A stretch of DNA of 42,988 nucleotides from NCBI GenBank assembly GCA_035710265.1, contig DASTDR010000472.1, positions 1 to 42,988 of the forward strand, written 5' to 3'. The notes under the pieces are model-generated. The model searched no databases, had not been told where the DNA came from, and saw only the letters and a program-made list of their open reading frames with translations. The stretch is from Gemmatimonadales bacterium. Lineage in GTDB: Bacteria > Gemmatimonadota > Gemmatimonadetes > Gemmatimonadales > GWC2-71-9. The position numbers were made by a program, and so were the translations under genes. Below are positions 2,441 through 16,593 of the stretch, in pieces. Position 1 is the stretch's first letter. The number at the start of each line of letters is the position of its first letter.

Positions 2441-2676
2441 AGCACGCATTACAGCTGATTCTGCTCTTTGGACTCGCCGGGTTGACGTTCTCCGGCGTGC
2501 TCACGTATCGCGAGGTGTTCGCGTCCTCGGCGACCTGTCCCTCACCGGGGGCGCCCGGCACGATTCTCGGCTATCCGGCCTGCGTGTATGGATTCTTCAT
2601 GTATCTCGCGATTGTGATTACGGCGCTGGCCGGTTTGCGCGCCGGCTCGCGGTCCCCACGCGCGGTGCTGGTATGA
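2437..2676 (+). CDS. small 2-TM membrane protein with a loop Cys pair (faint resemblance to the N-terminal half of VKOR)
   Basis: ATGA overlap with the transpeptidase stop. Two hydrophobic helices flank TCPSPGAPGTILGYPACVYG. No CxxC motif. Confidence 0.45.
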   Translation: MKHALQLILLFGLAGLTFSGVLTYREVFASSATCPSPGAPGTILGYPACVYGFFMYLAIVITALAGLRAGSRSPRAVLV

Positions 2677-3053
2677 ACAGCAAAGTGATCGCGCTCCTCG
2701 TCACGCTGGCGTGGGCGGGCGTCGCCTGCAGCGACGAAACCGGGCCACAGATCTCGCTGGCCGGCACGTGGGACTTCATCGGGTTCAGCGATGCCGGGAT
2801 CGAGGCAGCCACGACCGGCACCTGGACGTTCGAGACCACCAACGCGTTCCATGTGCAGGGGACGATCACGTTTCCCGGTGAGCCCACCGATTCGCTCGTG
2901 GTGTCCGGCTCCTACAGCCAGCAGGGGAGTCAGGTCGAGCTGACGATCGGCATTGACACGGGCAGGTGGACGCTCAGCGGCGATGGAGACGTCGTGGTGC
3001 TGACCGAGGTCGAGCCGGCACCGGCGAACACGATCACGCTGCGTCGCCAATAG
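2673..3053 (+). CDS. lipoprotein, unknown function
   Basis: ATGA overlap with the preceding gene. Lipobox in MNSKVIALLVTLAWAGVAC|SDE. The rest is beta-rich and polar. Confidence 0.6.
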   Translation: MNSKVIALLVTLAWAGVACSDETGPQISLAGTWDFIGFSDAGIEAATTGTWTFETTNAFHVQGTITFPGEPTDSLVVSGSYSQQGSQVELTIGIDTGRWTLSGDGDVVVLTEVEPAPANTITLRRQ

Positions 3054-3089: not shown

Positions 3090-3656
3090 TCAGCGCGCCT
3101 CGCTTCCGCTGACTCGTCGCAGTCTGCGCTCCTCGTCATCGTAGGTGATCAGCACGATGTCGCGGCGCGCGATGCGAATCGTGTCGTGGAACGTGAGGGC
3201 GGGCGGGGTTTCACGCGCTTCGTGTGCGCGGTCTTCCTCCCCTTCGCGAAACAAGGCTCCGGCGGTCATGCGCTCGAACGCGACTTCAATGCGGTGCCGG
3301 CCGCTCGCAACGGGCAGCTCGAAGAACACGAACAGCGGTCGATCCTCGCGCACGCCGCCTGCCCGAGCGGTGTCGTCGAGAACGAGGACGCTGTCAATCC
3401 ACACACGGAGGTGATACGGGAGGATGTGCCGCGTGCAGACTTCTTTCTGACGCATGTGCACGGGCATCCTCGCCAGCTCCTCGGGCGCGACGCGGCGGCA
3501 GACCCGGGCCTGCTCGCCGAGCGCGCGCCACGACAGTCTGATCAGACCCTGGTCCGCCGCCGCGCCGCCGCTGGAGATCGCGGACAACAGCGCGAGTGCG
3601 CCGGCGCTGCCGGCGGCGACGGCCAGACCGAGCGCGCGCCACGGTCTCCACTTCAT
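3090..3656 (-). CDS. membrane-anchored or secreted hypothetical protein, translationally coupled to the cytochrome b fusion
   Basis: ATGA overlap (3653-3656) with the upstream gene. N-terminal hydrophobic segment WRALGLAVAAGSAGALALLSAI. No recognisable motif. Confidence 0.5.
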   Translation of the reverse strand: MKWRPWRALGLAVAAGSAGALALLSAISSGGAAADQGLIRLSWRALGEQARVCRRVAPEELARMPVHMRQKEVCTRHILPYHLRVWIDSVLVLDDTARAGGVREDRPLFVFFELPVASGRHRIEVAFERMTAGALFREGEEDRAHEARETPPALTFHDTIRIARRDIVLITYDDEERRLRRVSGSEAR

Positions 3657-5221
3657 GAGGGGAGCACCGGCTCGACCGTACAGTCGCGCACAACGTCGAC
3701 ATCGGTTTCACCCGCGGCCGCAGCCAGGGCGTCGATCGTCGCCCGGAAATCGTCGATCGCGTGCAGCACAACACCGGGTTCCCCGGGTCCGGCGTGAACG
3801 AACCGCACGCGCCGGCGGTCCACACGCGCCTGGAGCTCGGCTTCCCGTTCGTGATACAGGCGCTGCTCGGTCCATTTCGGGCCTTCGCGGTTTCGGCAAT
3901 CCCGCGGCGGGCAGGATACCACCAGGACACCGCCGGCGCCGGCTCGGATGCAGAACTCGATCACCGAGGTGTGCAGATTACCGGCGCAACTGATCGGACG
4001 AAGGTGCACGCCCGGCCGGCCGTTCCCCGCCACTGCGGCGCTGCGGTCACAGCCGATCACCACGAGGTCACGCGGTCCCAGGCCAGCCGCGGCGACGAAC
4101 GCGCGGATGGCCGAGAGCTGATCACGCCCCGTTCTCCCCGGTGGCCCGACGCCCATTGGCGCGCACGAGCCCGCGCAGATCCCGCAGCTCACACACAGCT
4201 CAGGATGGACGTGGGCAACGAGCGCGGAGCGCACGGTGTCCACGCCCCTCCCGCCCTCGCGGGAGATCATTTCTATCGCTTCGTAGGGGCAGTCGACATA
4301 GCACTGCTCGCACCCGGTACAGATGGTCTCGTCGACCACTGACTTTGGTGGCTCGAGCGCGGGAGCCGGCCGGGTCCACGGGGGCACCAAAAGCAGCACC
4401 ACGCCGAGGAATACGCCGATGACCCACACAATCCCGGCGGGCAAGGCGCGACTGAGCGGCAACCAGAATGTGTAGAAGGCGTCATAGGGTGCCGGGCCGG
4501 GCAGACGAAACAAATCGGCGGCGGGGCCGAGCGGAGCGGGCCAGAGCAGCGACAGGACCAGGAGCAGCGCGATCGTGCCCCACAGCAGCCCGCGCGGCGG
4601 CAGGAGGTTCGGGCGAGCCATGCGCGAGACGTGCAGCCATACGAGCAGTCCCAGCCCGATGGGCAGGGCAATATGGGCGAAGAGATTGAGGAAGAAGAAC
4701 GCCGCGGGGATCGGGCGCTCCCCAACGAACGCCCGGCCGATTGGCTCGCCGAAAATGGGGAGGACGTCGAGCAGCCGCGCGCCCTCTTGCGCCAGGACCT
4801 GCGCCGGGACGTCCCATACCATCACGAGTCCCGTCCACCCACACACCAGCGTCACCGCGACGAGGATCAACCCGGTGACCCACGCGAGCGTACGCGGCCC
4901 CCAACTCCGACCCTGGGCGAACATGCGGAGCGCGTGCACGAGGACGGCGACGACCGCGGCATCGGAAGCGTAGCGGTGCAGGGTCCGGATCCATTCCCCG
5001 AGCCACGGCTGCATGCGAAGCCCGGCGATCGACTGATACGGCGAGCCGACGCGGTAGACGAAGAGCAGGTAGATGCCGGTGACCAACAGCACGAGGAACA
5101 GAGCCACGACCAGGGTGCCGCTTTGGTACAGCGGGTTGTAGCGCCAGCCGTAGAGCCGGTTCATGGCGGCATCGAGCCACGCGAGGACGCGCCAGCTGCC
5201 TTGCCGGGTCCTAATTATCAT
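3653..5221 (-). CDS. fusion protein: di-heme cytochrome b (6 TM) + 2x[4Fe-4S] ferredoxin + MvhD/FlpD-like domain
   Basis: Two H-x13-H pairs sit in TM helices (LHRYASDAAVVAVLVHAL and AHIALPIGLGLLVWLHV), as in cytochrome b of bc complexes. Two Cys clusters: CTGCEQCYVDCP and CVSCGICAGSCAP. The C-terminus resembles the methyl-viologen-reducing hydrogenase delta subunit (VIGCDRSA...ISCAGNLH...VVSCPPRDCRN). Start moved from 5353 to ATG 5221 (MIIRTRQGSW) so that it does not run over the divergent Rrf2 gene. Confidence 0.75.
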   Translation of the reverse strand: MIIRTRQGSWRVLAWLDAAMNRLYGWRYNPLYQSGTLVVALFLVLLVTGIYLLFVYRVGSPYQSIAGLRMQPWLGEWIRTLHRYASDAAVVAVLVHALRMFAQGRSWGPRTLAWVTGLILVAVTLVCGWTGLVMVWDVPAQVLAQEGARLLDVLPIFGEPIGRAFVGERPIPAAFFFLNLFAHIALPIGLGLLVWLHVSRMARPNLLPPRGLLWGTIALLLVLSLLWPAPLGPAADLFRLPGPAPYDAFYTFWLPLSRALPAGIVWVIGVFLGVVLLLVPPWTRPAPALEPPKSVVDETICTGCEQCYVDCPYEAIEMISREGGRGVDTVRSALVAHVHPELCVSCGICAGSCAPMGVGPPGRTGRDQLSAIRAFVAAAGLGPRDLVVIGCDRSAAVAGNGRPGVHLRPISCAGNLHTSVIEFCIRAGAGGVLVVSCPPRDCRNREGPKWTEQRLYHEREAELQARVDRRRVRFVHAGPGEPGVVLHAIDDFRATIDALAAAAGETDVDVVRDCTVEPVLPS

Positions 5222-5235
5222 ATTAACATGATAAT
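5214..5235. promoter_or_regulatory. perfect 8-6-8 palindrome ATTATCAT-ATTAAC-ATGATAAT in an AT-rich island; candidate Rrf2 operator or shared divergent promoter
   Basis: Read directly from 5211-5246 ctaattatcatattaacatgataataatacgatatg. This is the only strongly AT-rich stretch I noticed in the core region. It overlaps the minus-strand ATG (5219-5221) and ends 9 nt before the Rrf2 ATG (5244). Confidence 0.55.
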
Positions 5236-5243
5236 AATACGAT

Positions 5244-5663
5244 ATGCTTTCGCAAACAGCGGAATACGCCTTGCGCGCCGTACTGTACCTGGCGGAGCAC
5301 AGCGATCCCAGCGTGCCGGTGCGCGTCGGGACCATCGCCGACAACCTCGGCATCCCTCAGAACTATCTCTCCAAGATCCTGCACCAGTTGGTCCGCGAAG
5401 GGGTCCTGGGATCGCTGCGCGGGAAAGCCGGCGGCTTTTGGCTCGCCGCTCCGCCGGAGAAGCTGGCGTTGAGCGCCGTCATCATGCCCTTCGATCGCGT
5501 CGAACAGCGACGCCGCTGTCTGCTGGGCCGGCCGCAATGCACCGATCGCAGCGCATGTGCTGCTCATACGCGCTGGAAGGAGGTCGCGGACCGGGTCGCC
5601 GAGTTCTTCCGCGAAACGACGGTGGCGGATCTGCTGGGTCGGGGCGCGGCACTCGTGGTATGA
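5244..5663 (+). CDS. Rrf2-family transcriptional regulator with 3-Cys Fe-S cluster motif (NsrR/IscR-like)
   Basis: N-terminal wHTH MLSQTAEYALRAVLYLAEH...IPQNYLSKILHQLVREGVL. Cys triad CLLGRPQCTDRSAC (C-x6-C-x5-C). Confidence 0.85.
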   Translation: MLSQTAEYALRAVLYLAEHSDPSVPVRVGTIADNLGIPQNYLSKILHQLVREGVLGSLRGKAGGFWLAAPPEKLALSAVIMPFDRVEQRRRCLLGRPQCTDRSACAAHTRWKEVADRVAEFFRETTVADLLGRGAALVV

Positions 5664-5690: not shown

Positions 5691-5852
5691 ATGGCTAGGT
5701 CAGCCCAGCCGGACGAGCGCGCGCCGCTGCTGCAGCGCGTATATGACAATCCTTTTCTCCTGCTGATCGCCGGCATCGGCGTGATGGTGGTGTTCTATAC
5801 GGCCTGGGGCTTGTGGGAGATCCTAACGCTCCCGCCGGCTCCACTGCCCTGA
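5691..5852 (+). CDS. 53-aa single-TM protein, positional analogue of oxidase subunit IIa
   Basis: Too short for the ORF track. Hand translation gives MARSAQPDERAPLLQRVYDNPFLLLIAGIGVMVVFYTAWGLWEILTLPPAPLP. A strong SD (AAGGAGAGG) lies 5 nt upstream. It sits directly upstream of a CuA subunit II, as cbaD does in the second oxidase operon. Confidence 0.55.
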   Translation: MARSAQPDERAPLLQRVYDNPFLLLIAGIGVMVVFYTAWGLWEILTLPPAPLP

Positions 5853-5868: not shown

Positions 5869-6447
5869 ATGCACACCGGTATGCAGTCGCCGCGCGGCAT
5901 CTGGTGGCGGCCCGCGCACAAGACGGAAAAGATGTGGGTGCTCATCGCGTTCGCGTGGTGCTTGGTGCTCTTCGCCATGATGCCGCTGTGGCACCTGAAG
6001 GGCGCGCAGAATCCATCGGGCATTCGTCACCGCGTGGACCCAAACGCGTACGCCCGGCGCACCAACGAGTTCATCCGGACGTACAAGGTCGGCATGGACG
6101 GCGCCATCCCGGTCGTCGAGCCGCCGCCCGGCAGCGACGTCTACCTGCTCGGTCGAATGTGGGCGTGGGAGCCGGTCCTCAAGCTGCACAAGGGTGTGGA
6201 ATACACGCTGCATCTCTCCTCGGTGGACGTGAATCACGGGTTTAGTCTCACGCCGGTGAATCTCAATTTCCAGGTTGTGCCCGGTTACGACTACGGCCTG
6301 CGGATCACGCCCACCCAGGCGGGCGACTTCCGGGTCGTGTGCAACGAGTTCTGCGGCATCCAGCACCATGCGATGGTCGGCCGCATCATCGTGGTTGACG
6401 ACAGCGCGAGCGGCGCCGCACCAACTCGCACCGGAGGTGGCCAATGA
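5869..6447 (+). CDS. heme-copper oxidase subunit II (single-TM, cupredoxin, CuA site intact)
   Basis: CuA ligands DVNHGF ... VVCNEFCGIQHHAM (C-x3-C-x3-H-x2-M). One N-terminal TM helix, as in B-family subunit II. GAGGA lies 6 nt upstream of the ATG. Confidence 0.85.
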   Translation: MHTGMQSPRGIWWRPAHKTEKMWVLIAFAWCLVLFAMMPLWHLKGAQNPSGIRHRVDPNAYARRTNEFIRTYKVGMDGAIPVVEPPPGSDVYLLGRMWAWEPVLKLHKGVEYTLHLSSVDVNHGFSLTPVNLNFQVVPGYDYGLRITPTQAGDFRVVCNEFCGIQHHAMVGRIIVVDDSASGAAPTRTGGGQ

Positions 6448-8177
6448 CCGCCGTCGCCGCTGCTCCCGCTCCCGAGGCGTTCCGCGAGTGCTCCACCACG
6501 GGACTGAAGATCAACGCGCAGGCGGAGGCGCTCATCAAGGTGAACGCCGTCGCCGCGACGGTCTCGCTGCTGATCGGTGGGATCGCGGCCGTGCTCGTGT
6601 TGCTGACGCGCTGGCAGGTCGTGCACCTGCTGTCGGCCGAATGGTTCTACCGCGTGCTCACGGTGCACGGCATGAGCATGCTGATCTTCTTCATCATCTT
6701 CTTCGAGATGGCCGTGCTGTATTTCGCCAGCGCGGTCCTGCTCAACAGCCGCGTTGCCACCCCGCGTCTCGCCTGGGCGTCCTTCTGGCTCATGGTCGGC
6801 GGTGCGCTGCTGGTCGAGTGGATGATGTGGACCGGGAAAGCGGACGTGCTCTTCACGTCGTACGTGCCGCTCCGCGCGCATCCGCTGTACTACCTCGGCA
6901 TCATTCTCTTCGCGGTCGGGGCCTTGATCGTCAGCGGCATCTTCTTCGCCACGCTCGTCGTCGCAAAGCGCGAACGTACCTACGAAGGATCCGTTCCGCT
7001 CGTGACGTTCGGGGCCGCGACCGCCGCCATCATCGCGGTCATCACGCTGCTACACGGCGCCGCGATCTACATTCCGACCTTCCTCTGGTCGCTCGGCCTC
7101 ATGCATGTCGATCCGCAGATCTATCGCATGATCTGGTGGGGCCTGGGTCACTCTTCGCAGCAGATCAACGTGGCGGCGATGGTGTCGCTCTGGTATTTGC
7201 TGGGCGCGCTCACGATCGGCGCCGTCGTCCTCAATGAGAAGATCAGCCGGACCGCCTTCGTGCTCTACGTCCTGTTCATCTCGATGGCCGCGGCACACCA
7301 CCTGCTCGTGGACCCGGGACTCTCGCCCGCGTGGAAGGTCTGGAATACCAGCTACGCGATGTACCTCGCCGTGCTCGCGAGCATGGTACACGGGTTCACC
7401 ATTCCGGCCGGCATGGAGGCATCACAGCGGCTCCGCGGCCTGACGAAAGGAATGTTCGAATGGCTGCGCAAGGCGCCGTGGAGTGATCCCGGGTTCAGCG
7501 CCCTGATCTTTTCAATCATCATCTTCGGCTTCCTGGGCGGAATTACGGGCGTCACGTTTGGAACCGAACAGATCAATCTCATTGCGCACAACACCTTCCG
7601 GGTCCCCGCGCATTTCCATGCCACCGTGGTCGGCGGAACCGCGCTCGCCTTCATGGGCATCACGTACTACGTGATTCCGTTGATCTTCCGAAAACAGGTG
7701 GCCTTCTGGCCGCTCGTGAAGGTGCAACCGTATCTCTTCGCGATCGGCATGACGATCTTCGCCGTTGCCGGGACGTTCGCCGGAACCTTTGGACTGCCGC
7801 GCCGGCACTGGGACACGACCTTCTCGCAGGCGCCGTTTGACGTTCAGTACCACCCGGCCGTGAACCTCATGGTCGGCATCATGGCGATTGGCGGTCTGAT
7901 CGCGGCGGTCGGCGGCGCGATCTACCTCGTGTCGACGGTGTGGTCGGTATTCTTCGGGAAATCGATCGCTGCGCTGTCGGGCGCCGAGATCCGAAATCTG
8001 CGCGCCGGCATACCGGCCGGCATTCTGCGCCCCCCGCCGCCGCTCCCCGCGGGGGACGTCGATCATCGGGGGCTGTCGCGCGGCACCCTGGTCCTGGTCG
8101 GCGTGTTTTTGCTGGCGTTCATCGCGTACTACTTCGTGAACTGGAAGCTGCTCTCCGTCGTCTGGAAGGTCGGATGA
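6444..8177 (+). CDS. heme-copper oxidoreductase subunit I, B-family-like but lacking the His-Tyr cross-link tyrosine (candidate NO reductase)
   Basis: All six canonical His are present (TVHGMS; WWGLGHSS; AAAHHLLVDPG; HNTFRVPAHFH). Where ba3 oxidases have GHPxVYFW, this protein has GHSSQQIN. A Glu lies in TM2 (FFIIFFEMAV). ATGA overlap with subunit II. Confidence 0.8.
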   Translation: MTAVAAAPAPEAFRECSTTGLKINAQAEALIKVNAVAATVSLLIGGIAAVLVLLTRWQVVHLLSAEWFYRVLTVHGMSMLIFFIIFFEMAVLYFASAVLLNSRVATPRLAWASFWLMVGGALLVEWMMWTGKADVLFTSYVPLRAHPLYYLGIILFAVGALIVSGIFFATLVVAKRERTYEGSVPLVTFGAATAAIIAVITLLHGAAIYIPTFLWSLGLMHVDPQIYRMIWWGLGHSSQQINVAAMVSLWYLLGALTIGAVVLNEKISRTAFVLYVLFISMAAAHHLLVDPGLSPAWKVWNTSYAMYLAVLASMVHGFTIPAGMEASQRLRGLTKGMFEWLRKAPWSDPGFSALIFSIIIFGFLGGITGVTFGTEQINLIAHNTFRVPAHFHATVVGGTALAFMGITYYVIPLIFRKQVAFWPLVKVQPYLFAIGMTIFAVAGTFAGTFGLPRRHWDTTFSQAPFDVQYHPAVNLMVGIMAIGGLIAAVGGAIYLVSTVWSVFFGKSIAALSGAEIRNLRAGIPAGILRPPPPLPAGDVDHRGLSRGTLVLVGVFLLAFIAYYFVNWKLLSVVWKVG

Positions 8178-9070
8178 GAGGTCTGGCGGGGCGCGAAGCG
8201 GGCGCCCTGGCGGCGCTCGGCATCATTCTGTCGATCACGGCGGTGTGGTGGGCGCTCGCCCTGTGGCCGCTGCCAGGCGATGTCGCGCCGTGGCTGATCC
8301 GCACGCGCGCCGTGTGCTTTGGTGCGGTCGCGAACGGGCTCCCGACGACCGCCGGTTGGATGGTGCTCATCGGCCAACCCGTGTACATGCTGGCGGCGCT
8401 CTGGCTGATTTCCGGTACCACGGTGCGCTCGGCGCTCAAGACCGTGGCGCGGTTTCGCGCCGGCCGCGGCGTGCTGGCGGCGACGGCAGTCCTCACCCTC
8501 GTGGGTATCTCGAGCGCCGCCATGCGCGTAGCGCGTGCCGCCGACCCCAACCTGCTCGAAACGGGTCAGCCCTCCCCCGCTCCGAGCGACCAGGTCCCCC
8601 GCCTGAACCGCGCGGCACCGCCGCTGACGCTGGTCGATCACCGAGGAGAGCAGCTCACGCTCGCGCGGTTTCGCGGTCGACCGGTATTCATCACGTTCGC
8701 GTTCGCGCATTGCACGACAGTGTGCCCGCTCATTGTGCACGACGTACTGGCAGCCCAGCGGGCGGCGGCCAAGCTCGAACCGGTCGTCGTCGTCGTCACA
8801 CTCGATCCATGGCGAGACGTGCCGGCCCGTCTAGCGACCATCGCAACCCGGTGGCAACTGGGACCGGATGCGTACATCGTCGGCGGCGCCGTTGCTGACG
8901 TCGAGCGAACGCTCGATGCATGGAGCGTCAGTCGGGCCCGCGACCCACGGACCGGAGACATCACCCATGCTCCGGTCGTCTACATCGTCGACCGGAACGG
9001 GCGCATCGCGTTTCCCGTGACCGGAGCAAGTAGCGCGGCGACCATTGCGCGCCTCGCGGATCGCCTGTGA
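8174..9070 (+). CDS. SCO1/SenC-family copper chaperone fused to a polytopic N-terminal membrane domain
   Basis: Thioredoxin-fold motif FITFAFAHCTTVCPLIVHDV (CxxxC) and downstream H in ITHAPVVYIVD. ATGA overlap with the subunit I stop places the start at 8174 rather than 7940. About 130 N-terminal residues carry 3-4 hydrophobic helices. Confidence 0.75.
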   Translation: MRGLAGREAGALAALGIILSITAVWWALALWPLPGDVAPWLIRTRAVCFGAVANGLPTTAGWMVLIGQPVYMLAALWLISGTTVRSALKTVARFRAGRGVLAATAVLTLVGISSAAMRVARAADPNLLETGQPSPAPSDQVPRLNRAAPPLTLVDHRGEQLTLARFRGRPVFITFAFAHCTTVCPLIVHDVLAAQRAAAKLEPVVVVVTLDPWRDVPARLATIATRWQLGPDAYIVGGAVADVERTLDAWSVSRARDPRTGDITHAPVVYIVDRNGRIAFPVTGASSAATIARLADRL

Positions 9071-9921
9071 GCGAACGACTGGCGGCGTACTGGGCGCTCA
9101 CCAAGCCGGGCATCACAGGGCTGGTGATGCTGACCACGGGGGCGGGCGTTGCGTTGGCGGCGCGCGACGCCATGGACATCGCGCTGCTTGCGTACACGCT
9201 CATCGGAACCGGCTTCGTGGTGGCCGGAACCAATGCCTTGAACCAGTGGTGGGAGCGCGACGCCGACGCGCGCATGCACCGGACGCGGCGGCGTCCGCTG
9301 CCGGCCGGGCGACTGGAGCCCGGGGCTGCACTCGTCTTCGCGCTCGGCATCTCGACCGCCGGGCTCGTCTGGCTGGGGACATTGGTGAATGGTCTCACGA
9401 CACTGCTGGCGGCGCTCAGCCTCGTGATCTACGTCGGCGTGTACACCCCGCTGAAGCGCCGCACGTCTCTGGCGTTGTTCGTGGGCGCCGTGCCGGGCGC
9501 GCTTCCGATTCTCGGCGGCTGGACCGCCGCGGGCGCTGGCCTCACGAACGCGGCGTGGGTGCTGTTCGCCATCCTCTTCCTGTGGCAGCTGCCGCACTTC
9601 TTGGCACTGGGGTGGCTCTATCGCGAGGATTACCGCCGCGGCGGGTTCGCGATGCTGAGTCGTCACGATGCCGACGGCCGGCTCACCGGCCGCCAAGCGT
9701 CGCTCTTCTCTCTGGCCCTGCTTGTGGCGAGCCTGCTTCCGGCGTCTGTTGATCTCGCCAGCAGCGCATATGTGATGGGTGCAATCGCCCTCGGTACGGT
9801 ACTGCTGGCTTGGAGTGCGATGCTGTGGCGCGCCCCAACCGCCGCCGGCGCCCGCCGGTTGTTTCTCGCCTCGATCGTGTACCTTCCGGGGTTGCTGTTG
9901 CTTCTGATTGCCACGCCTTAA
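9067..9921 (+). CDS. ctaB: protoheme IX farnesyltransferase (heme O synthase)
   Basis: UbiA-family motifs NALNQWWERDADARMHRTRRRPLPAGRL and 8-9 TM helices. GTGA overlap with the SCO stop. Confidence 0.85.
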   Translation: MSERLAAYWALTKPGITGLVMLTTGAGVALAARDAMDIALLAYTLIGTGFVVAGTNALNQWWERDADARMHRTRRRPLPAGRLEPGAALVFALGISTAGLVWLGTLVNGLTTLLAALSLVIYVGVYTPLKRRTSLALFVGAVPGALPILGGWTAAGAGLTNAAWVLFAILFLWQLPHFLALGWLYREDYRRGGFAMLSRHDADGRLTGRQASLFSLALLVASLLPASVDLASSAYVMGAIALGTVLLAWSAMLWRAPTAAGARRLFLASIVYLPGLLLLLIATP

Positions 9922-9988: not shown

Positions 9989-12134
9989 CCTCCTTGACGG
10001 GCACCGGCCGAGCGGGCGGGGCCTCGGCGCGGCGCTGACGCACCAGCACCCGGGCGTCAACGGCCATTACGCCGGACGGAAACGCCAGCAGCGGATTGAT
10101 ATCGAGCTCCGCGATCTCGGGATGATCGGTCGCGAGCAGTGACACGCGCAACAAGACGTCCTCGAGCGCGGCGAAGTCGACCGGCACCGCGCCACGGATG
10201 CCGTTCAGCAACGCCACCCCGCGGATCGAGCGAATCATCTCGTGCGCATCGAGCGGGTCGAGCGGCGCCAGCCGGAAGGTCACGTCCTTCAGCGCTTCCA
10301 CGTAGATGCCGCCGAGCCCAAACATCACCAATGGGCCGAACGCGGGATCGCGACTCATGCCGACGATCGTTTCCCGGCCGCCGGTTACCATACGTTGTAC
10401 CAGCACGCCGACCTGCGCGCCGGGCAGCGCGCGCGTGACCGCCGCCGTCAGCTCGGCACTCGTGCGCTGAACTTCGCCGGCCGTCGCCAGGCCGAGGCGG
10501 ACCGCTCCCACGTCGGACTTGTGAATGAGTTGCGGCGCGACGGCCTTCAGCACGACCGGGAATCCCAGGGCCGTCGCGATCTCCGCCGCTTCCGCCGGGT
10601 GCTCCGCCAGCCTGGCCTCCGCGACCGGGATCCCGTAGGCGGCAAGCAGCTCGAGGGCGTCGAGTTCCGACAGTTTGTGGGTGCCGGCGTCGCGGGCGCC
10701 GGCCAGCGCGCGCGCCGCTCGGGCGCGATCCACGTCGATCGCCGGCGCAGGCTGCGTCGGCCGTCGAATCCATTCGTGCTGCCGGCTCAGCGCGGACAGC
10801 CCGCGAGCCGCCGACTCCGGGAACACGTACGCCGGAATGCCGGCGCGGTGCAGCTCGGCCCGACCCTGCGGCAGGCCCTCGCGACCCATCAACACCGCAA
10901 ACACCGGTTTCTGCCCGTGCCGCTCGGCGATGGTTACGATCGATTCAGCAACATCCTCCTGGCGAACGCCGAGCGGCGGCACGAACACCGCGAGCGCCGA
11001 ATCCACCTGCGGGTCGCTGAGGATCGCCTCGAGCGCGTGGCGATAATGCGTCGGGGTGGCCGACGCAATCATGTCGAGCGGATTGCGAATCGATGCTTCC
11101 TCCGGAAACAGCGGCTTCAGGCGCGTCACGGTCGCCGGTTGCAGCTCGACCAGCTCGAGCCCGTGGGCTTCGAGCGCGTCGGCGGCGAGGATCGCCGGAC
11201 CACCGGAGTTGGTGATGACCGCCGTGCGTCGCGAGCGCGGCATGGGACGCCCCGTAAACGCCATCGCCATGTCGAACAGCTCTTCGATCGACTCCGCCCG
11301 CAGCACGCCCGACTGCGCGAGCAGCGCGTCGACCGCGACGTCGCTGGCCGCCAGCGCGCCCGTGTGTGAGGAGGCCGCGCGGGCGCCCACCTGCGAACGG
11401 CCGGACTTCACCACGATGATCGGTTTGGTGCGCGTGATCCGGGACGCCAGCTCACGGAAGCGCCGGGGATTGCCGAAGCTCTCGACATACATCAGGATCA
11501 CACCGACCGCTGGGTCCCGCTCCCAGTATTCCAGGAGGTCGTTCCCGCTCACGTCCGGCTTGTTGCCCACCGACACGAATTGCGAAATCCCAATGCCGTA
11601 TTCGGCCGCATGATCGATGACGTTCAACCCCAGGGCACCCGACTGCGACACGAACGCAGCGCGTCCCTGCGGCGGCATCGCAGGCGCGAACGTCGCGTTC
11701 ATCGAGATTCCGTGGTCGGTGTTGAGCACCCCCATGCAGTTGGGTCCCACCATCCGCATCCCGTATTGGCGCACGATGTCCACGAGCTGCCGCTCGCGAT
11801 CGACGCCCACGCCGCCGATTTCTCGAAATCCCGCCGAGATGACCACGAGTCCGCGGACGCCGGCCTGACCACACCCGCGCGCCACATCCAAAACACGCTC
11901 CTTGGGCACCACGATGACCGCGAGGTCGATGGGCTCGGGAATGGCGCCGATGTTGGGATAGGCGCGCACGGACTGGATCGAGCTCGCGTTGGGATTGACC
12001 GGATACACGGCGCCGGTGAAGCCGTAGCGCAACAGGTTCGCGAAGATTTGATGCCCGATCGTATCGGACATGCGCGAGGCGCCGATCACGGCGATCGAGC
12101 GCGGCTTGAGGATGGCATCGAGGTTGTGCGTCAT
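9978..12134 (-). CDS. ADP-forming acetyl/acyl-CoA synthetase (fused alpha-beta, CoA-binding + ATP-grasp)
   Basis: PRSIAVIGASR CoA-binding start, VGPNCMGV, succinyl-CoA-synthetase-like ligase region, C-terminal ATP-grasp. 718 aa with no GNAT tail. Confidence 0.75.
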   Translation of the reverse strand: MTHNLDAILKPRSIAVIGASRMSDTIGHQIFANLLRYGFTGAVYPVNPNASSIQSVRAYPNIGAIPEPIDLAVIVVPKERVLDVARGCGQAGVRGLVVISAGFREIGGVGVDRERQLVDIVRQYGMRMVGPNCMGVLNTDHGISMNATFAPAMPPQGRAAFVSQSGALGLNVIDHAAEYGIGISQFVSVGNKPDVSGNDLLEYWERDPAVGVILMYVESFGNPRRFRELASRITRTKPIIVVKSGRSQVGARAASSHTGALAASDVAVDALLAQSGVLRAESIEELFDMAMAFTGRPMPRSRRTAVITNSGGPAILAADALEAHGLELVELQPATVTRLKPLFPEEASIRNPLDMIASATPTHYRHALEAILSDPQVDSALAVFVPPLGVRQEDVAESIVTIAERHGQKPVFAVLMGREGLPQGRAELHRAGIPAYVFPESAARGLSALSRQHEWIRRPTQPAPAIDVDRARAARALAGARDAGTHKLSELDALELLAAYGIPVAEARLAEHPAEAAEIATALGFPVVLKAVAPQLIHKSDVGAVRLGLATAGEVQRTSAELTAAVTRALPGAQVGVLVQRMVTGGRETIVGMSRDPAFGPLVMFGLGGIYVEALKDVTFRLAPLDPLDAHEMIRSIRGVALLNGIRGAVPVDFAALEDVLLRVSLLATDHPEIAELDINPLLAFPSGVMAVDARVLVRQRRAEAPPARPVPVKEVVG

Positions 12135-13924
12135 CTGACCCTGAGAGCGTTGAGGATCACCGCGGCATCCAGCGCTTCCTGCATGACGGCGCCCGCGGCG
12201 GGGGTGATGTGTCCAAGACTCGCGACGACCATCAGCGCGAAGCTCACGCCGAGGCCGACGCCGATACTCTGCAGCGCGATCTGGCGCATGCGCCGGCTGA
12301 TCGCCATGGCATCGCCGAGCCGCGCGATGTCGTCCACCAGCAGCACGACGTCGGCTGCCTCGGCGGACACCGCGGTGCCGTGCGCTCCCATCGCGACACC
12401 GACCGTCGCGGCCGCCAGTGCCGGCGCGTCGTTGATCCCATCGCCGACCATCAGGACGTTGCCGTGGCGCTTCGCCAGCTCCCGGACGGCGGCCACCTTG
12501 TCCGCCGGCAACAGATTGGCGCGCACGGTGCGGATGCCGGCCTGCGCGGCGATTGCTTCGGCGGGCGCTTCGCGATCCCCCGTGAGCATCACGGTGTCGC
12601 GCACGCCCAGGACCGCGAGGTGCTGCATCAGGGCGGGCACTTGATGACGCAGCCGGTCGGCGAAGTGAATCGCGCCCACGATTCTGCCATCCACGGCGAC
12701 GTGTGCGGTCGTGCCGTCGCTCGTGTGTTCGGGCGCGGAGATCCCCACGTCGCGCAGGTGCCGCACTGAGCCGATCTCCACTCGACGACCCTCGACCACT
12801 CCCGAGACTCCGCGCCCGGGGCTCTCGCGAAACCCGGTGACCGACGGGAGTGGGCGTCCGCCCGCGCGATCGCGGCTCGCATCCACGACGGCATGGCCGA
12901 GATGATGGGATGACAACTGCTCGACGGCCGCGGCGAGGCGCAGGACCTCCGGCGCGGCCATGCCGTTCAGTCCTTCGACATGGGCAACCATGGGCTGCCC
13001 CAGCGTCAGCGTGCCGGTCTTATCGAAGACCACCGCCTGGGCGCGGCCGAGCTGCTCGATCGCGCGGCCATGCTTCACGATCACCCCGAGATCCGCGGCG
13101 CGACTGATCCCCGCGATCACCGCGACGGGCGTCGCGAGAATCAATGGACAGGGCGTCGCCACGACGAGAACCGCCAGGATGCTCGTCGTCGTACCCGTCA
13201 CGAGGAACGCGATGCCACACATCAGCAGCGTGACCGGGGTGAACCACACCGCGAACCGGTCCGCCAGACGCTGGATCGGCGGTTTCTCCCGTCTCGCTTG
13301 CTCGACCAGCAACACGATCTGCTGGTACTGACTCTGCGCGCTCGCGCGCAGGGCGCGGACGCGCAACGCGCCATCGAGGTTCACGCTGCCGCTCAGGAGA
13401 TGCGTGCCGGCGACCGCGCGCAGCGGCAGCGGCTCGCCCGTAAGCGCCGACTGATCGACGCTCGACGTGCCGTCGATCACTTCGGCATCCACCGGCACGA
13501 GATCGCCGGGCCGCACCAGAATCTCGTCTCCCACGACCACCGTCTCCACGGGGACATCCTCGACCTCGGCGCCACGCATGCGATGCGCTACCTTCGGCGC
13601 CCGAGCCATGAGTGCCTCGAGTGAGCTCGAGGCTCGCCGCATCGCGTACGCTTCGAGCGCCTCCCCGCCGGATTGCATCAGCACGATGACGACGCCCGCA
13701 AAGTACTGCCCCAGGATGATAGCCGTGACGATCGCGAGCGTCGCGACGATGTCCGCGGCAAATCGGCCGCGGAACACCCCCGTCACCGTCTTCAGGACCA
13801 GCGGGATGCCGCCCGCGAGCACCGTACCGAGAAAGACTGCGTCGGAGCCCGTGAGGAGTCCCACCACCAGACCGGCGGCGGCGAGTAGCGCGATCAGCCG
13901 GTGCGCGTCAGCTTTGTTGCGCAT
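12131..13924 (-). CDS. P1B-type heavy-metal ATPase with TPCP transmembrane motif and no soluble metal-binding domain
   Basis: TGEPLP, DKTGTLT, GDGINDAPAL, and TM motif VVATPCPLILATP. ATGA overlap with the downstream synthetase. ATG at 13924 (MRNKADAH) preferred over TTG at 13933. Confidence 0.8.
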   Translation of the reverse strand: MRNKADAHRLIALLAAAGLVVGLLTGSDAVFLGTVLAGGIPLVLKTVTGVFRGRFAADIVATLAIVTAIILGQYFAGVVIVLMQSGGEALEAYAMRRASSSLEALMARAPKVAHRMRGAEVEDVPVETVVVGDEILVRPGDLVPVDAEVIDGTSSVDQSALTGEPLPLRAVAGTHLLSGSVNLDGALRVRALRASAQSQYQQIVLLVEQARREKPPIQRLADRFAVWFTPVTLLMCGIAFLVTGTTTSILAVLVVATPCPLILATPVAVIAGISRAADLGVIVKHGRAIEQLGRAQAVVFDKTGTLTLGQPMVAHVEGLNGMAAPEVLRLAAAVEQLSSHHLGHAVVDASRDRAGGRPLPSVTGFRESPGRGVSGVVEGRRVEIGSVRHLRDVGISAPEHTSDGTTAHVAVDGRIVGAIHFADRLRHQVPALMQHLAVLGVRDTVMLTGDREAPAEAIAAQAGIRTVRANLLPADKVAAVRELAKRHGNVLMVGDGINDAPALAAATVGVAMGAHGTAVSAEAADVVLLVDDIARLGDAMAISRRMRQIALQSIGVGLGVSFALMVVASLGHITPAAGAVMQEALDAAVILNALRVR

Positions 13925-14330
13925 GGTCGACAAGGCGGTGACGGCGCTGGCCAGGGCGAGCTACGATCGCTGCTGCAAGGCGCCCGATTTCCTGCAGGCG
14001 TTCTACCGGCATTTCCTCGCGGCATGTCCCGAGGCCGCGCCGCGGTTCGCCCGGACGGACTTCGAGCAGCAGACCAGGCTGTTGCGACACGCGATCGGCC
14101 TGCTGCTCATCTTCCCGACACAGCCACCGAAAGAGCCGCCACTGCTCGCGCGGCTCGCCGAGCGGCACAGCCGGCGCGATCTCGACATCGATCCCGCGTT
14201 CTACCGCCCGTTCATCGAATCCCTCATCGCGACGGTCAAACAGTACGACGGCGAGTGCACTCCTGCCATTGAAGCGGCCTGGCGGGAGACGGTTGCACCC
14301 GGCGTGCAGTACATGACGTCCAAGCATTAG
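13923..14330 (+). CDS. single-domain globin (sensor-globin-like lineage)
   Basis: MVDKAVTALARASYDRCCKAPDFLQAFYRHFL...LLRHAIGLLL...AERHSRRDLDIDPAFYRPFIESL has the helix pattern and His positions of bacterial single-domain globins. The start is uncertain: ATG 13923 or in-frame GTG 13938. Confidence 0.55.
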   Translation: MVDKAVTALARASYDRCCKAPDFLQAFYRHFLAACPEAAPRFARTDFEQQTRLLRHAIGLLLIFPTQPPKEPPLLARLAERHSRRDLDIDPAFYRPFIESLIATVKQYDGECTPAIEAAWRETVAPGVQYMTSKH

Positions 14331-14336
14331 CCATCC

Positions 14337-15959
14337 TCAGAACGGCTTGAACCCCGGCGAACCGAATCGGGGCATCTGCAAGTGGTGCCACAGCGGATAC
14401 GCGTACGCGATGATCACCAGGACCACGGCGACGCCGGTCCACACCCAGTAGCGGTCGAAGATCGTGCGTCCCGGCGCGAGGGGGTGCAGCGGCTCCGCCC
14501 ACTCGATCGTCTGCGATGCCGTCCGCTTCCCTGCCAGCCGCGTGCCGATCATCACCAGAATGAAAAACGCGGCGCTCGTGAACAGGAACAGCCCGCCGAC
14601 CGCGGACACACCGGTCAAGCCGCGCCACGCCTCGGCGACCGGACTGCCGCCGTAACTCGCGTCGTACACTCGGCGCGGCATGCCCATCAGACCGGTGATG
14701 TGGTTCGAGAACGAAAACAGCATCATGCCGATGAACCACAGGTAGGGCTGCACCCGCGCGAGCAAGGCCAGCTCGAGCTCGCGGCCCGACAGCCGCGGCA
14801 CGAGCCAGTAGGCCGCCCCCATGAAGGTGAGCGCGACCGCGCTGCCGACGGTGAGGTGGAAGTGGCCCTGAATGAATGCCGTGTTGTGCACGACCGCGTT
14901 CATCCCGAATGACGCGTTGATGGCGCCGCCGATCCCGCCGACTGCGAACAGGATCATGGACAGCGCCACGCTCGAGAACAGGGGATCGCGCCACGGCAGC
15001 TTGCCGATCCAGTCGAGCAGCCCCTTCGCGCCCTGCATCCGGCCACCGACCTCCATGGATGCCGTCACGGTGAACGCGGTGATGAAGCTCGGGAACAGAA
15101 TCGCGAAGGTGAGAAACGTGTGCAGCAGCTTCCAGCCTGACGAGACGCCCGGATCCATGAACTGATGGTGGAATCCGACCGGCGTCGAAAACAGAATGAA
15201 CAGCGCGAACACGAGCCGAGCGAGCGGATCGCTGAACAGCTTCCCGCCCGCGATCCGGGGCAGGACCGAGTACCAGATCACGTAGGCCGGCAGCAGCCAG
15301 AAGTACACGAGCGGATGTCCGAAGTACCAGAACAGCATGCGCGACAGCACCGGGTCCACGCCATTCGTCCAGCCCAGCGACCAGGGAATGAGCTGGAACA
15401 GCACCTCGACCGCGACACCGATCGTCGCGATGTACCAGACCACCACCGTCGCGATCATGCCGTGCATCGCGAGCGGCGCGGGCCGGTCGGGACGCGTCCG
15501 GCGCCAGCTGCGATACGACAGCAGCATCACCGCACCCCAGCACCACGACCCGACCACCACCAACGTGAGCCCGATGTAGAACGCGGGATGCGCCTGCAGC
15601 GGCGGATAGAACGTGTACAGCACGGTGGCTTTGCCGGTGAGAATCGCGAACGCCGCAGACGCAGTGCCCGCCAGCGCGAGCCAGAATCCCGCCCATGCGA
15701 GCTTGATGGGGGACGGTTCCTGATCCAGCGCGCGCGTGACGACGACGTAGCCGAACGCCATGATGAAGAACGTCGTGAACACGAGCGCCATGAGCACGCC
15801 GTGCGCGGTGACCGACAGGTAATACATCTTGGCCGAACGCCACGGCAGATCGAGGCTGGCGCGTGACAGCGACTGCATCAATGCCATCGCCGATGCCGCC
15901 CCGAACGCCACGACGGCGACCCACAGGTGGGACAGCGACAGCCGGTCGGCGCGCGTCAT
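14337..15959 (-). CDS. cbaA: cytochrome ba3-type (B-family) oxidase subunit I
   Basis: FWYFGHPLVYFWLLPAY (His plus cross-link Tyr), VGFHHQFMDPG, VVHNTAFIQGHFHL. Closely parallels Thermus ba3 subunit I from memory. ATGA overlap with subunit II sets the start at 15959. Confidence 0.9.
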   Translation of the reverse strand: MTRADRLSLSHLWVAVVAFGAASAMALMQSLSRASLDLPWRSAKMYYLSVTAHGVLMALVFTTFFIMAFGYVVVTRALDQEPSPIKLAWAGFWLALAGTASAAFAILTGKATVLYTFYPPLQAHPAFYIGLTLVVVGSWCWGAVMLLSYRSWRRTRPDRPAPLAMHGMIATVVVWYIATIGVAVEVLFQLIPWSLGWTNGVDPVLSRMLFWYFGHPLVYFWLLPAYVIWYSVLPRIAGGKLFSDPLARLVFALFILFSTPVGFHHQFMDPGVSSGWKLLHTFLTFAILFPSFITAFTVTASMEVGGRMQGAKGLLDWIGKLPWRDPLFSSVALSMILFAVGGIGGAINASFGMNAVVHNTAFIQGHFHLTVGSAVALTFMGAAYWLVPRLSGRELELALLARVQPYLWFIGMMLFSFSNHITGLMGMPRRVYDASYGGSPVAEAWRGLTGVSAVGGLFLFTSAAFFILVMIGTRLAGKRTASQTIEWAEPLHPLAPGRTIFDRYWVWTGVAVVLVIIAYAYPLWHHLQMPRFGSPGFKPF

Positions 15960-16429
15960 GGCTGGGCTTCCACGATGAGCTTGGCGGACATGAGGTGATG
16001 CGAGAGGCCGCAGTATTCGTTGCACACGATCAGGTATTCACCGGGCGCCTTGAACACGGTCGTGAACTGGCTGACGTAGCCCGGGACGACCATCGTGTTG
16101 CCGTTCGTGCCCACAATCTGGAAGCCGTGCGTGACGTCGGAGCTCGTCATGCGAAACGTCACTGGACGGCCCGCGGGGACCCGCAGCTCCGCCGGCTGGA
16201 ACGCAAACATCATCGCGATCAGCACCACGGTCGCGCCGTGCTCGTCCACCGTCACACCGCGGCTGGCGAAGCGCGCGTCGCTCCATACGCGCTTCGGATC
16301 GATCGTTTCGACGTGGCTGGGCGGCTGCAGCGCACTCCCCGCCACGCCGACCACGATCGTCGTCAGGAAGGCAACGATGATCAGCGCCGACGCCCACATC
16401 CAGAACTTCTCGTAGAGCGGCACGTTCAT
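15956..16429 (-). CDS. cbaB: cytochrome ba3-type oxidase subunit II (CuA)
   Basis: Single TM helix. CuA motifs DVTHGF ... IVCNEYCGLSHHLM. ATGA overlaps at both ends. Confidence 0.9.
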   Translation of the reverse strand: MNVPLYEKFWMWASALIIVAFLTTIVVGVAGSALQPPSHVETIDPKRVWSDARFASRGVTVDEHGATVVLIAMMFAFQPAELRVPAGRPVTFRMTSSDVTHGFQIVGTNGNTMVVPGYVSQFTTVFKAPGEYLIVCNEYCGLSHHLMSAKLIVEAQP

Positions 16430-16593
16430 GGCGTCACCCCGCCGCGCCGCAGATAGATGAAGACGTAGACCGCAAACCACGCGGCCACGAAGATCACGCC
16501 GTATAACCCGACCAACAACAGCGTGCCTTTGGGATGCTCGGTTGCGGGAGTGTGCGGAGCGGGTGGAGCCTGCGGTTTGGTTGGCGCAACCAT
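16426..16593 (-). CDS. cbaD: cytochrome ba3 oxidase subunit IIa (55 aa, single TM)
   Basis: This is the C-terminal part of track ORF 16426..16968. From ATG 16593 it reads MVAPTKPQAPPAPHTPATEHPKGTLLLVGLYGVIFVAAWFAVYVFIYLRRGGVTP. The HPKGTL...FIYLRRG segment resembles Thermus subunit IIa (KPKGAL...VFFARG). Confidence 0.65.
   Translation of the reverse strand: MVAPTKPQAPPAPHTPATEHPKGTLLLVGLYGVIFVAAWFAVYVFIYLRRGGVTP

Follow-up and report, generated by a model that had tools for sequence, protein, structure and literature searches.

A cytochrome b–ferredoxin–MvhD fusion protein encoded beside eNOR, a candidate transmembrane electron wire in Gemmatimonadota and other phyla

The cytochrome b fusion gene and its 188-residue partner

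The window analyzed here (the whole stretch of 42,988 nucleotides, contig DASTDR010000472.1 of GenBank assembly GCA_035710265.1, from a Gemmatimonadales bacterium) carries on its minus strand a gene for a 522-residue protein in which a di-heme cytochrome b is fused to a ferredoxin module and an MvhD-like domain, followed by a gene for a 188-residue membrane-anchored protein, here called p188. Divergent from this pair lie the gene of an Rrf2-family regulator and an operon for a heme-copper enzyme of the eNOR family of nitric oxide (NO) reductases. The two minus-strand genes, and the parts of the fusion protein, are the following.

3653..5221, minus strand: 522-residue cytochrome b–2x[4Fe-4S] ferredoxin–MvhD/FlpD fusion gene, stop codon included (open reading frame, Pfam, PDB profile, AlphaFold, Foldseek, homologues)
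4352..5221, minus strand: cytochrome b6/bc1-like membrane core, residues 1–290 (helices A–D plus E and F; ef-loop D247-x-x-Y250)
4142..4351, minus strand: 2x[4Fe-4S] ferredoxin module, residues 291–360 (two CxxCxxCxxxC(P) motifs), a homologue of the ferredoxin domain at the HdrA C-terminus
3707..4069, minus strand: MvhD/FlpD-like domain (PF02662), residues 385–505, with C391, C412, C437 and C442, a putative [2Fe-2S] site
3090..3656, minus strand: p188, an N-terminal transmembrane helix followed by a periplasmic β-sandwich with the conserved cysteine pair C53 and C74 (synteny, fusion, AlphaFold)

The open reading frame of the fusion protein spans 3653..5353 of the minus strand in full, and the ATG at 5221 yields the 522 residues. 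The 20 or so residues ahead of the next methionine (pattern RRxLxxxDAxMNRLYGW) are kept in the homologues, and there is no alternative start codon between the ATG at 5221 and that methionine. The ATG at 5221 is thus the best start, being the only one that retains the conserved 20 or so N-terminal residues.

The three-part architecture proposed in a preliminary description of this DNA is borne out by Pfam, by profile searches of the PDB and by structure prediction. Cytochrome_B (PF00033) matches residues 31–198 with 45.6 bits (cut-off 27.2), several Fer4 families exceed their cut-offs within residues 295–353, and FlpD/MvhD (PF02662) matches residues 402–499 with 44.9 bits (cut-off 22.3). Residues 289–501 align as a single block with positions 567–773 of the NCBIfam model HdrA2, i.e., with its ferredoxin and MvhD parts. 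A family profile run against the PDB retrieved cytochrome b6 (2e-30), the C-terminal ferredoxin domain of HdrA (1.5e-14) and MvhD chains (1e-12 to 1e-10). The AlphaFold model, built from 56 homologues, has a predicted local distance difference test score (pLDDT) of 89.3 and a predicted TM-score of 0.86. In Foldseek it superimposes on bc1 cytochrome b across some 285–295 columns, covering helices A–F, with a probability of 1.00 to many bc1 and b6f cytochromes b. The MvhD-like nature of the cysteine-rich C-terminal region, which the domain score already indicates, is corroborated by TM-scores of 0.70–0.73 to MvhD chains (8rvu_F, 5odc_D).

Conservation of the cofactor ligands was assessed in 56 diverse homologues from Gemmatimonadota, Alphaproteobacteria, Myxococcota, Verrucomicrobiota and other groups. 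The heme ligand pairs H82/H96 and H183/H197, each spaced H-x13-H in helices B and D, are invariant, as are the cysteines of both cluster motifs (C301/304/307/311-P312 and C343/346/349/353). Three of the MvhD cysteines, C391, C412 and C437, are invariant as well; the fourth, C442, is present in at least 90% of the set and is invariant in a 13-sequence alignment.

Hydropathy and the structural model agree on six transmembrane helices with the N-terminus on the positive-inside, cytoplasmic side, which upholds the topology first suggested: the C-terminus, and with it the iron-sulfur domains, must be cytoplasmic. In the ef-loop, D247 is invariant and Y250 is present in at least 90% of the sequences of the 13-sequence alignment, the window protein itself reading YDAFY. 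The loop consensus xDWWYLFP aligns only weakly with PEWYFFP of PetD (subunit IV; hhalign E 0.019). Judging from these residues, the cytochrome b core may have kept a periplasmic-side quinol pocket, although its gene cluster contains no Rieske gene.

The stop codon of the fusion gene and the start codon of p188 overlap in ATGA, as had been described, so the coupling of the two genes stands. The AlphaFold model of p188 (pLDDT 79.6) consists of a transmembrane helix and then an 11-strand β-sandwich. The protein had been described as motif-less, and it has no match in Pfam or NCBIfam; Foldseek against the PDB returned only generic β-sandwiches at E values of 0.02 or above. What did not stand is its status as a mere neighbor. 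It is a separate gene in Gemmatimonadota and Alphaproteobacteria, whereas elsewhere it is the C-terminal domain of the cytochrome b polypeptide. Proteins of about 700 residues, in the order cytochrome b, ferredoxin, MvhD, a seventh transmembrane helix and the p188 domain, are, judged by length, the majority form among the representatives. Such fusion through a seventh helix, a case of Rosetta-stone fusion, places the p188 domain in the periplasm.

The cysteine pair C53/C74 of p188 is widely conserved; the adjacent His-Met pair is not conserved in Gallionella. A role as copper chaperone or redox protein, at which the Cys, His and Met residues hinted as a metal site, was considered and rejected, as the His-Met pair is absent in Gallionella and neither a family nor a fold relative was found. 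From its sequence p188 has no evident cofactor.

Downstream of p188, two plus-strand reading frames encode a 79-residue VKOR-like fragment (2437–2676), just under the Pfam cut-off, and a 126-residue product without a family (2673–3053). Since both are conserved only in the closest relative (locus L001), they are regarded as lying outside the unit formed by the fusion gene and p188.

The fusion protein belongs to a large family. A word-indexed protein search gave more than 3,000 matches, the best 120 of which are all full-length, share the architecture and are 59–90% identical to the window protein, mostly from metagenome-assembled genomes (MAGs) of Gemmatimonadales. An exhaustive search of representatives clustered at 50% identity gave 422 clusters at E values up to 1e-30, including members labelled Nitrospinota and Thermodesulfobacteriota; identity between the window protein and the fused or alphaproteobacterial forms is 33–38%. 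Genome scans located the family in Gemmatimonadota, Alpha-, Beta-, Gamma- and “Delta”-proteobacteria, Myxococcota, Methylomirabilia and Rokubacteria, and also in Acidobacteriota, Verrucomicrobiota, Spirochaetia, Oligoflexia, Nitrospinota and Chloroflexota, in total more than 10 phyla. Isolates are represented (Defluviimonas, Paramagnetospirillum marisnigri, Limibaculum and Marivita), as are complete genomes. The usual names given to these proteins by the Prokaryotic Genome Annotation Pipeline are “hydrogenase iron-sulfur subunit” and “cytochrome b N-terminal domain-containing protein”. The statement that no member has been characterized holds: no biochemical study of any of them was found in the literature, and a 2026 preprint on Ferrigenium, taken up below, is the only discussion found.

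It follows from the thousands of full-length homologues with intact ligands, from the confident model and from the presence of the gene in isolates and complete genomes that a fusion artefact, a frameshifted pseudogene or a chance reading frame is an explanation of vanishingly small probability. The one hint in its direction is a split tblastn match in a low-coverage MAG contig. The cytochrome b–ferredoxin–MvhD family, with or without the additional transmembrane helix and β-sandwich, is real and widespread, neither an artefact nor an orphan.

The contig concerned is from the Gemmatimonadetes MAG Ww581 (L033/L107, 4777–6513; coverage about 2.5x), in which tblastn matches the cytochrome b homologue in two segments that overlap but differ in frame. 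Either the copy is frameshifted or the contig, with its very low coverage, contains a sequencing error.

The divergent eNOR operon and its conservation

The features upstream of the fusion gene are listed below.

5214..5235: palindrome ATTATCATATT/AACATGATAAT, core ATCAT-N6-ATGAT, a probable Rrf2 operator that holds the start codon of the fusion gene
5228..5255, minus strand: σ70-like promoter for the fusion gene, −35 TTGCGA, 16-nucleotide spacer, −10 TATCAT (consensus match only)
5244..5663, plus strand: Rrf2-family regulator of 139 residues with the cluster-binding motif C92-x6-C99-x5-C105, divergent from the fusion gene (PF02082, 102.7 bits)
5691..5852, plus strand: unannotated 53-residue protein with a single transmembrane helix, just upstream of eNOR subunit II, with a GGAG-type ribosome-binding site (tblastn)
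5869..6447, plus strand: eNOR subunit II, transmembrane helix and cupredoxin with the CuA motif C-N-E-F-C-G-I-Q-H-H-A-M (motif read from the sequence; Pfam, NCBIfam)
6444..8177, plus strand: eNOR subunit I, 577 residues, with CuB/FeB ligands H236 and HH 286–287, Gln240 and the signature WGxGHSSQQINV (Pfam COX1, 216 bits)
8174..9070, plus strand: SCO1/SenC copper chaperone, its start overlapping the stop of subunit I in ATGA (PF02630, 74.5 bits)
9067..9921, plus strand: UbiA-family prenyltransferase of the heme o synthase type, last gene of the eNOR operon (PF01040, 173 bits; the homologue on a Defluviimonas plasmid is annotated cyoE)

The preliminary description spoke of a NOR-like oxidase. 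Its type can be narrowed: by its sequence signature, the window enzyme is assigned to the eNOR family of heme-copper NO reductases. Aligned with Thermus ba3 oxidase, subunit I retains all three CuB histidines together with the two heme ligands, and Gln240 occupies the position of the cross-linked Tyr237. A glutamine in place of the active-site cross-link tyrosine is diagnostic of eNOR against other NO reductases and O2 reductases (Hemp and Gennis 2008, as related in PMC8756737). The window enzyme has the motifs WGxGHSSQQ(I/V)NV, AHHLL and IIFFE in common with the oxidases that accompany cytochrome b homologues in Gallionella, Paramagnetospirillum, Methylomirabilia, Defluviimonas, Woeseiaceae, Oligoflexia and Verrucomicrobiota; the Gallionellaceae member is classed as eNOR, in Ferrigenium straubiae, by a preprint whose authors include a heme-copper specialist (bioRxiv 10.64898/2026.01.22.701106). 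The SCO protein and the heme o synthase complete the window operon, in keeping with descriptions of eNOR operons.

An identity as sNOR was assumed at first, because the literature on ammonia oxidizers describes norSY-senC-orf1 beside an NsrR gene, the fusion gene then being “orf1”. It was rejected: the glutamine of eNOR is present and the equivalent of Ser309, which sNOR reportedly lacks, is kept. No locus of the ammonia oxidizers Nitrosomonas, Nitrosospira or Nitrosococcus appeared among the loci listed from any scan.

The 53-residue reading frame occurs in the same position in 151 related loci and probably encodes a small subunit of eNOR, much like subunit IIa in ba3 oxidases. As at the junction of the fusion gene and p188, 4-nucleotide overlaps (ATGA or GTGA) are found at 6444–6447 between subunits II and I, at 8174–8177 between subunit I and SCO, and at 9067–9070 between SCO and heme o synthase; both transcription units are thus tightly translationally coupled.

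The regulator exceeds the cut-off of the NCBIfam model rrf2_super and stays well below the equivalog cut-offs of NsrR (45 bits against 182) and IscR (73 against 207). The start codon of the fusion gene had been placed inside the palindrome, and it does sit there, at 5219–5221 within the left arm; in most of the relatives compared, it is found further upstream, tens of bases from the gene, with the start codon outside. In exact form the core ATCAT-N6-ATGAT occurs once in the window. With at most one mismatch it was found in 53 of 78 distinct intergenic regions between the Rrf2 and cytochrome b genes (13.8 kb in total; 32 of the matches are exact), against six matches in 918 kb elsewhere in those loci. 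The sequence comparison thus marks the palindrome as a conserved operator in Gemmatimonadota, probably that of the Rrf2 regulator. The −10 hexamer TATCAT (5233–5228) lies within the palindrome. From the position of this predicted promoter, transcription of the fusion gene may begin near 5221, the A of the ATG, which would make the mRNA leaderless. No second operator was found upstream of eNOR subunit II in the window, so the plus-strand genes are probably read from the Rrf2 promoter. In the arrangement that we propose, the three-cysteine regulator would control both divergent units through ATCAT-N6-ATGAT, its operator overlapping both the −10 box and the presumed transcript start of the fusion gene; responsiveness of these units to NO is plausible.

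Gene order was compared in 56 distinct loci flanked by 4.5 kb or more to either side, the window proteins serving as queries against the fetched loci. A p188 homologue is present in 55 of the 56, subunit I in 54, the CuA subunit II and SCO in 53 each and Rrf2 in 38. The suspected link of the fusion gene to the oxidase and to Rrf2 is therefore upheld by both the gene set and the palindrome. In Gemmatimonadota the cytochrome b and eNOR units are transcribed divergently and in most cases enclose the Rrf2 gene, while a colinear order of subunit II, subunit I, in some cases heme o synthase, SCO, cytochrome b and p188 is seen in Methylomirabilia, Rokubacteria, Oligoflexia, Spirochaetia, Gamma- and Alphaproteobacteria. 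Isolates with the gene set together include Paramagnetospirillum marisnigri (L179) and a Defluviimonas strain with its plasmid. Heme o synthase is found in 16 of about 117 loci compared. The retention of this gene set through rearrangements and across phyla points to a functional unit, not to shared regulation alone. Among the conserved neighbors in about 200 loci there is no gene for a Rieske protein or a c1/f-type cytochrome, a cytochrome c domain being added only in Chloroflexota. As stated originally, neither [NiFe] hydrogenase nor heterodisulfide reductase genes lie near the fusion gene in the window, and none is found among the conserved neighbors.

The Defluviimonas plasmid (165 kb, NZ_CP156080.1, 13852–20598) was the one useful match of a plasmid search. 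It carries a complete eNOR-type cluster of small protein, subunits II and I, cyoE, SCO, the cytochrome b fusion and its partner, the genes from subunit II to the partner bearing annotations of the Prokaryotic Genome Annotation Pipeline, and a hemerythrin-family gene comes after them.

These comparisons bear on the view that the protein forms a redox loop independent of eNOR catalysis, oxidizing quinol at the outer face and reducing a cytoplasmic acceptor through MvhD in the manner of NarI/NarH or HdrE/HdrD, and that it is merely co-regulated with eNOR in a nitrosative-stress regulon. Its architecture does resemble the QmoC- and HdrE-type anchors with their cytoplasmic iron-sulfur partners, MvhD serves Hdr complexes as an electron adaptor between proteins, and the Rrf2 operator is shared. 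Co-regulation by itself, however, cannot account for synteny over more than 10 phyla and in varied gene orders, lineages without Rrf2 included; nor does such a loop explain the fusion to a periplasmic domain or to a cytochrome c, and no candidate enzyme for the cytoplasmic acceptor is conserved nearby. We consider this view highly improbable.

A second heme-copper enzyme is encoded in the window, a ba3-type O2 reductase with the cross-link tyrosine in the motif GHPLVYFW (14337–15959, minus strand) and its CuA subunit II (15956–16480, minus strand). It has no adjacent cytochrome b partner (14337–16480); a P-type ATPase gene (12131–13933) adjoins it.

Natural variants and the route of electrons

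Two natural variants alter the ends of the protein. In Gallionellaceae the same cytochrome b core carries a tail of Fer2, FAD_binding_6 and NAD_binding_1 instead of ferredoxin and MvhD, and in about 45 genomes of Gallionellaceae and other Betaproteobacteria the gene is flanked by SCO and the p188 homologue (for example L124:1270–3207, from a Gallionella MAG; also L209–L246). This exchange identifies the cytoplasmic end as an interchangeable module that faces cytoplasmic carriers, in this case pyridine nucleotide. The characterized relatives of the Fer2-FAD-NAD module, the reductases of oxygenases, pass electrons from NAD(P)H through FAD and a [2Fe-2S] cluster to a partner. In Chloroflexota (Anaerolineae), a single reading frame of about 775–880 codons encodes cytochrome b, ferredoxin, MvhD, a transmembrane helix and the β-sandwich and ends in a cytochrome c with the heme motif CRICH (CxxCH; L175, L178, L196, L203 and L160). 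It adjoins a B-family O2 reductase with the tyrosine (GHPLVYFW) and a CuA subunit, not eNOR. Cytochrome c is the canonical donor to CuA, and this fusion thus demonstrates that the periplasmic end can carry the classical CuA donor. A protein like the Chloroflexota variant is listed in a table of PMC8756737.

In several lineages a membrane protein of 445–476 residues is encoded after the p188 homologue (L124:3736–5145, L105:9058–10425, L034:9997–11334 and L111:1610–3040). It is a distant relative of heme-copper subunit I, 22–26% identical to the window enzyme and, with 28 bits to Pfam COX1, below the cut-off; in Gallionellaceae its gene precedes a second, MvhD-type cytochrome b paralogue. The “eNOR scaffold protein” mentioned in the Ferrigenium preprint may be this membrane protein.

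In our reading, the 522- and 188-residue products are the two-piece form of a membrane redox protein that acts as a dedicated transmembrane electron wire feeding eNOR, a proposal in which our confidence is evenly balanced. The cytochrome b core would carry its two b hemes close to opposite membrane faces, with the two [4Fe-4S] clusters and the MvhD-type [2Fe-2S] cluster of the tail on the cytoplasmic side and the β-sandwich of the p188 domain at the periplasmic face. Electrons from a cytoplasmic carrier would pass through the [2Fe-2S] cluster, the two [4Fe-4S] clusters, the cytoplasmic-side heme b and the periplasmic-side heme b to the CuA of eNOR, and quinol bound in the retained pocket might offer a second entry. 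The wire would thereby supply the electrons for the reduction of 2 NO to N2O. Domain identity, ligand conservation, topology, gene fusion, synteny and the conserved operator are observed here; the complex with eNOR, the direction of flow, the cytoplasmic donor and a response to NO are inferred.

The preliminary description had taken the protein for a wire from the quinone pool to the cytoplasm. The anatomy of a wire is retained here, but that direction is only one of those possible. By analogy, the NAD(P)H-reductase tail of Gallionellaceae and the cytochrome c end of Chloroflexota favor flow from the cytoplasm to periplasmic CuA, and this direction is downhill and aided by the membrane potential. 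According to the preprint on Ferrigenium straubiae, two cytochrome b homologues lie within its eNOR operon, all four proteins (the preprint's count) were detected in the proteome of culture KS during nitrate-reducing Fe(II)-oxidizing growth, and eNOR is among the features specifically upregulated in that condition (bioRxiv 10.64898/2026.01.22.701106).

Several points weigh against the wire. Both the physical complex and the transfer of electrons to CuA are deduced, and p188 has, from its sequence, no recognizable cofactor site or fold relative, so that the proposal does not explain how, in Gemmatimonadota, electrons would get to CuA from the outer heme. A simple wire would have no use for the retained Qo-like pocket (D247, Y250), which fits bifurcation better. 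The alignment of its loop with PEWY is weak. Near the fusion gene there is no gene for a cytoplasmic donor to the MvhD cluster. Electrons exported in this way and re-entering through eNOR would conserve no energy beyond that conserved by eNOR itself, which implies a route of detoxification or an electron sink. Finally, a subunit of this kind is not mentioned in the main text of the publication on eNOR purified from Rhodothermus (PMC11214002).

The pocket gives the most serious competing proposal its substance, namely that of bifurcation at a Qo-type site without a Rieske protein. Quinol would be split, one electron passing to the strongly oxidizing branch of CuA and eNOR and the other through the b hemes to the iron-sulfur and MvhD clusters, or to FAD and NAD(P), reducing ferredoxin or NAD(P)+, so that NO reduction would power reverse electron transport. 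The E and F helices are conserved, as is the D-x-x-Y loop, which aligns, if weakly, with PEWYFFP of subunit IV, and the structural match extends over helices A–F. The layout is bc-like, the high-potential branch lying in the periplasm (cytochrome c in Chloroflexota) and the low-potential one reaching into the cytoplasm, and many hosts, among them Gallionellaceae, Methylomirabilia and Sulfuricaulis, are lithoautotrophs in need of reverse electron flow. For the FAD/NADH variant of Ferrigenium, the authors of the preprint propose just such a “quinol:NAD+ oxidoreductase”, with the energy of NO reduction coupled to NAD+ reduction (bioRxiv 10.64898/2026.01.22.701106). On the other hand, no Rieske protein or other obvious first acceptor is found at the pocket, and the second electron would face both an opposing membrane potential and an uphill step to about −320 mV or below. 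With CuA (about +250 mV) as the immediate acceptor, the reaction is by our estimate endergonic for ubiquinol. Moreover, the characterized relatives of the Fer2-FAD-NAD module oxidize NAD(P)H, and the hosts among Gemmatimonadota and Rhodobacterales are heterotrophs with no obvious need of reverse flow. Taken together, we hold bifurcation to be unlikely, and the fuller claim of a new kind of Rieske-less bc-type complex, docked on eNOR and producing reduced ferredoxin or NAD(P)H by NO-driven quinol bifurcation, to be a little more doubtful again.

A role in the biogenesis of eNOR would put the same parts to another use: the protein would export reductant that keeps the SCO or CuA cysteines, or copper or iron, reduced, or would aid heme modification. 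SCO is its companion in 53 of the 56 well-flanked loci, heme o synthase is found in some loci including the window, the periplasmic domain bears a conserved cysteine pair, and an “eNOR scaffold protein of unknown function” is named in such operons by the preprint (bioRxiv 10.64898/2026.01.22.701106). Yet the other oxidase of the window, of the A/B-family type and with the same CuA centre in a subunit II of its own, does without such a protein, and a protein of 520–800 residues with seven cofactors would be lavish for a chaperone. The cytochrome c end in Chloroflexota is that of a typical catalytic electron donor, and the NAD(P)H-reductase variant suggests a sustained flux. An assembly or maturation factor is, in our opinion, improbable.

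Relation to known systems and significance

The closest described counterpart is the eNOR operon of Ferrigenium straubiae, for which the preprint reports two “bc1 chain C-like” genes (IMG 2878407319 and 2878407323); the second is described as encoding a cytochrome b with an [Fe-S] domain, and its operon also contains heme o synthase and sco1 (bioRxiv 10.64898/2026.01.22.701106). In the Gallionellaceae loci compared here, the gene corresponding to 2878407323 is the cytochrome b–ferredoxin–MvhD paralogue, which is 33–37% identical to the window protein and lies in the same cluster, and the oxidase near these genes shares the eNOR signature with the window enzyme. Unlike in the window, it is the Fer2-FAD-NAD variant that comes right behind SCO, and the MvhD-type copy is found after the 470-residue gene related to heme-copper oxidases. 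The preprint calls the genes “rather unusual”, takes them as Ferrigenium markers and offers a hypothesis only (bioRxiv 10.64898/2026.01.22.701106). The present comparison extends the association with eNOR across the phyla sampled and recognizes the 188-residue partner as part of the unit.

With the bc1 and b6f complexes the window protein shares the fold over helices A–F and the two H-x13-H heme sites, and its D-x-x-Y loop, in the same position, may correspond to PEWY, with weak similarity. In those complexes helices E and F and the PEWY loop form the quinol-oxidation pocket on the periplasmic side, and the window core keeps E and F. It differs in that the cluster encodes no Rieske protein and no cytochrome c1 or f, in having no helices G and H and no cysteine for heme cn, and in continuing after helix F into cytoplasmic iron-sulfur domains, at the face where bc complexes have their quinone-reduction site. 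Its partner, too, is a different one, a heme-copper NO reductase. The tail in turn resembles the ferredoxin and MvhD parts of Mvh-Hdr, of the HdrA2 fusions and of QmoB, as seen from the one-block alignment, the match of MvhD in sequence and fold, and the four conserved cysteines. Here, in contrast, there is no flavin-bearing HdrA core, no HdrBC and no hydrogenase, and the module is covalently joined to a membrane cytochrome b.

Membrane-spanning pairs of b hemes with a connection to cytoplasmic iron-sulfur proteins are also found in NarI/NarH, HdrE/HdrD, QmoC and DsrM/DsrK. These, unlike the window protein, belong to other cytochrome b folds or families and serve cytoplasmic catalytic subunits; to our knowledge, none of them partners a heme-copper enzyme or has a periplasmic domain. 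The NOX and ferric-reductase proteins lead electrons from NAD(P)H and FAD through two b hemes to an external acceptor, an analogy limited to the Gallionellaceae variant. Their membrane fold is unrelated to that of the Gallionella protein, which has an additional 2Fe-2S domain and a bc-type core. The parts of the system are thus familiar; it is their combination that differs, a Rieske-less bc-type core with iron-sulfur domains and a periplasmic domain, tied to a heme-copper NO reductase.

It should be noted that eNOR is abundant, with 2,709 matches in IMG metagenomes and 547 GTDB genomes (PMC11214002). It is among the most abundant NO reductase families, and hence a substantial source of N2O. 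The only eNOR purified was assayed with ascorbate/TMPD and turned over less than one NO per second (PMC11214002), and no description of its physiological electron donor was found in the literature. The cytochrome b fusion protein is the obvious candidate for this missing redox partner. If it does feed eNOR with electrons of cytoplasmic origin, denitrification by way of eNOR may circumvent the pool of quinone and cytochrome c. Should bifurcation prove true instead, it would represent a new mechanism of energy coupling, a Qo-type site working without a Rieske protein, and NO-driven reverse electron transport in denitrifiers and lithoautotrophs. The cytochrome b partner would also sharpen the prediction of N2O producers from genomes, because eNOR is routinely mis-annotated as cytochrome c oxidase and its partner as “hydrogenase iron-sulfur subunit”.

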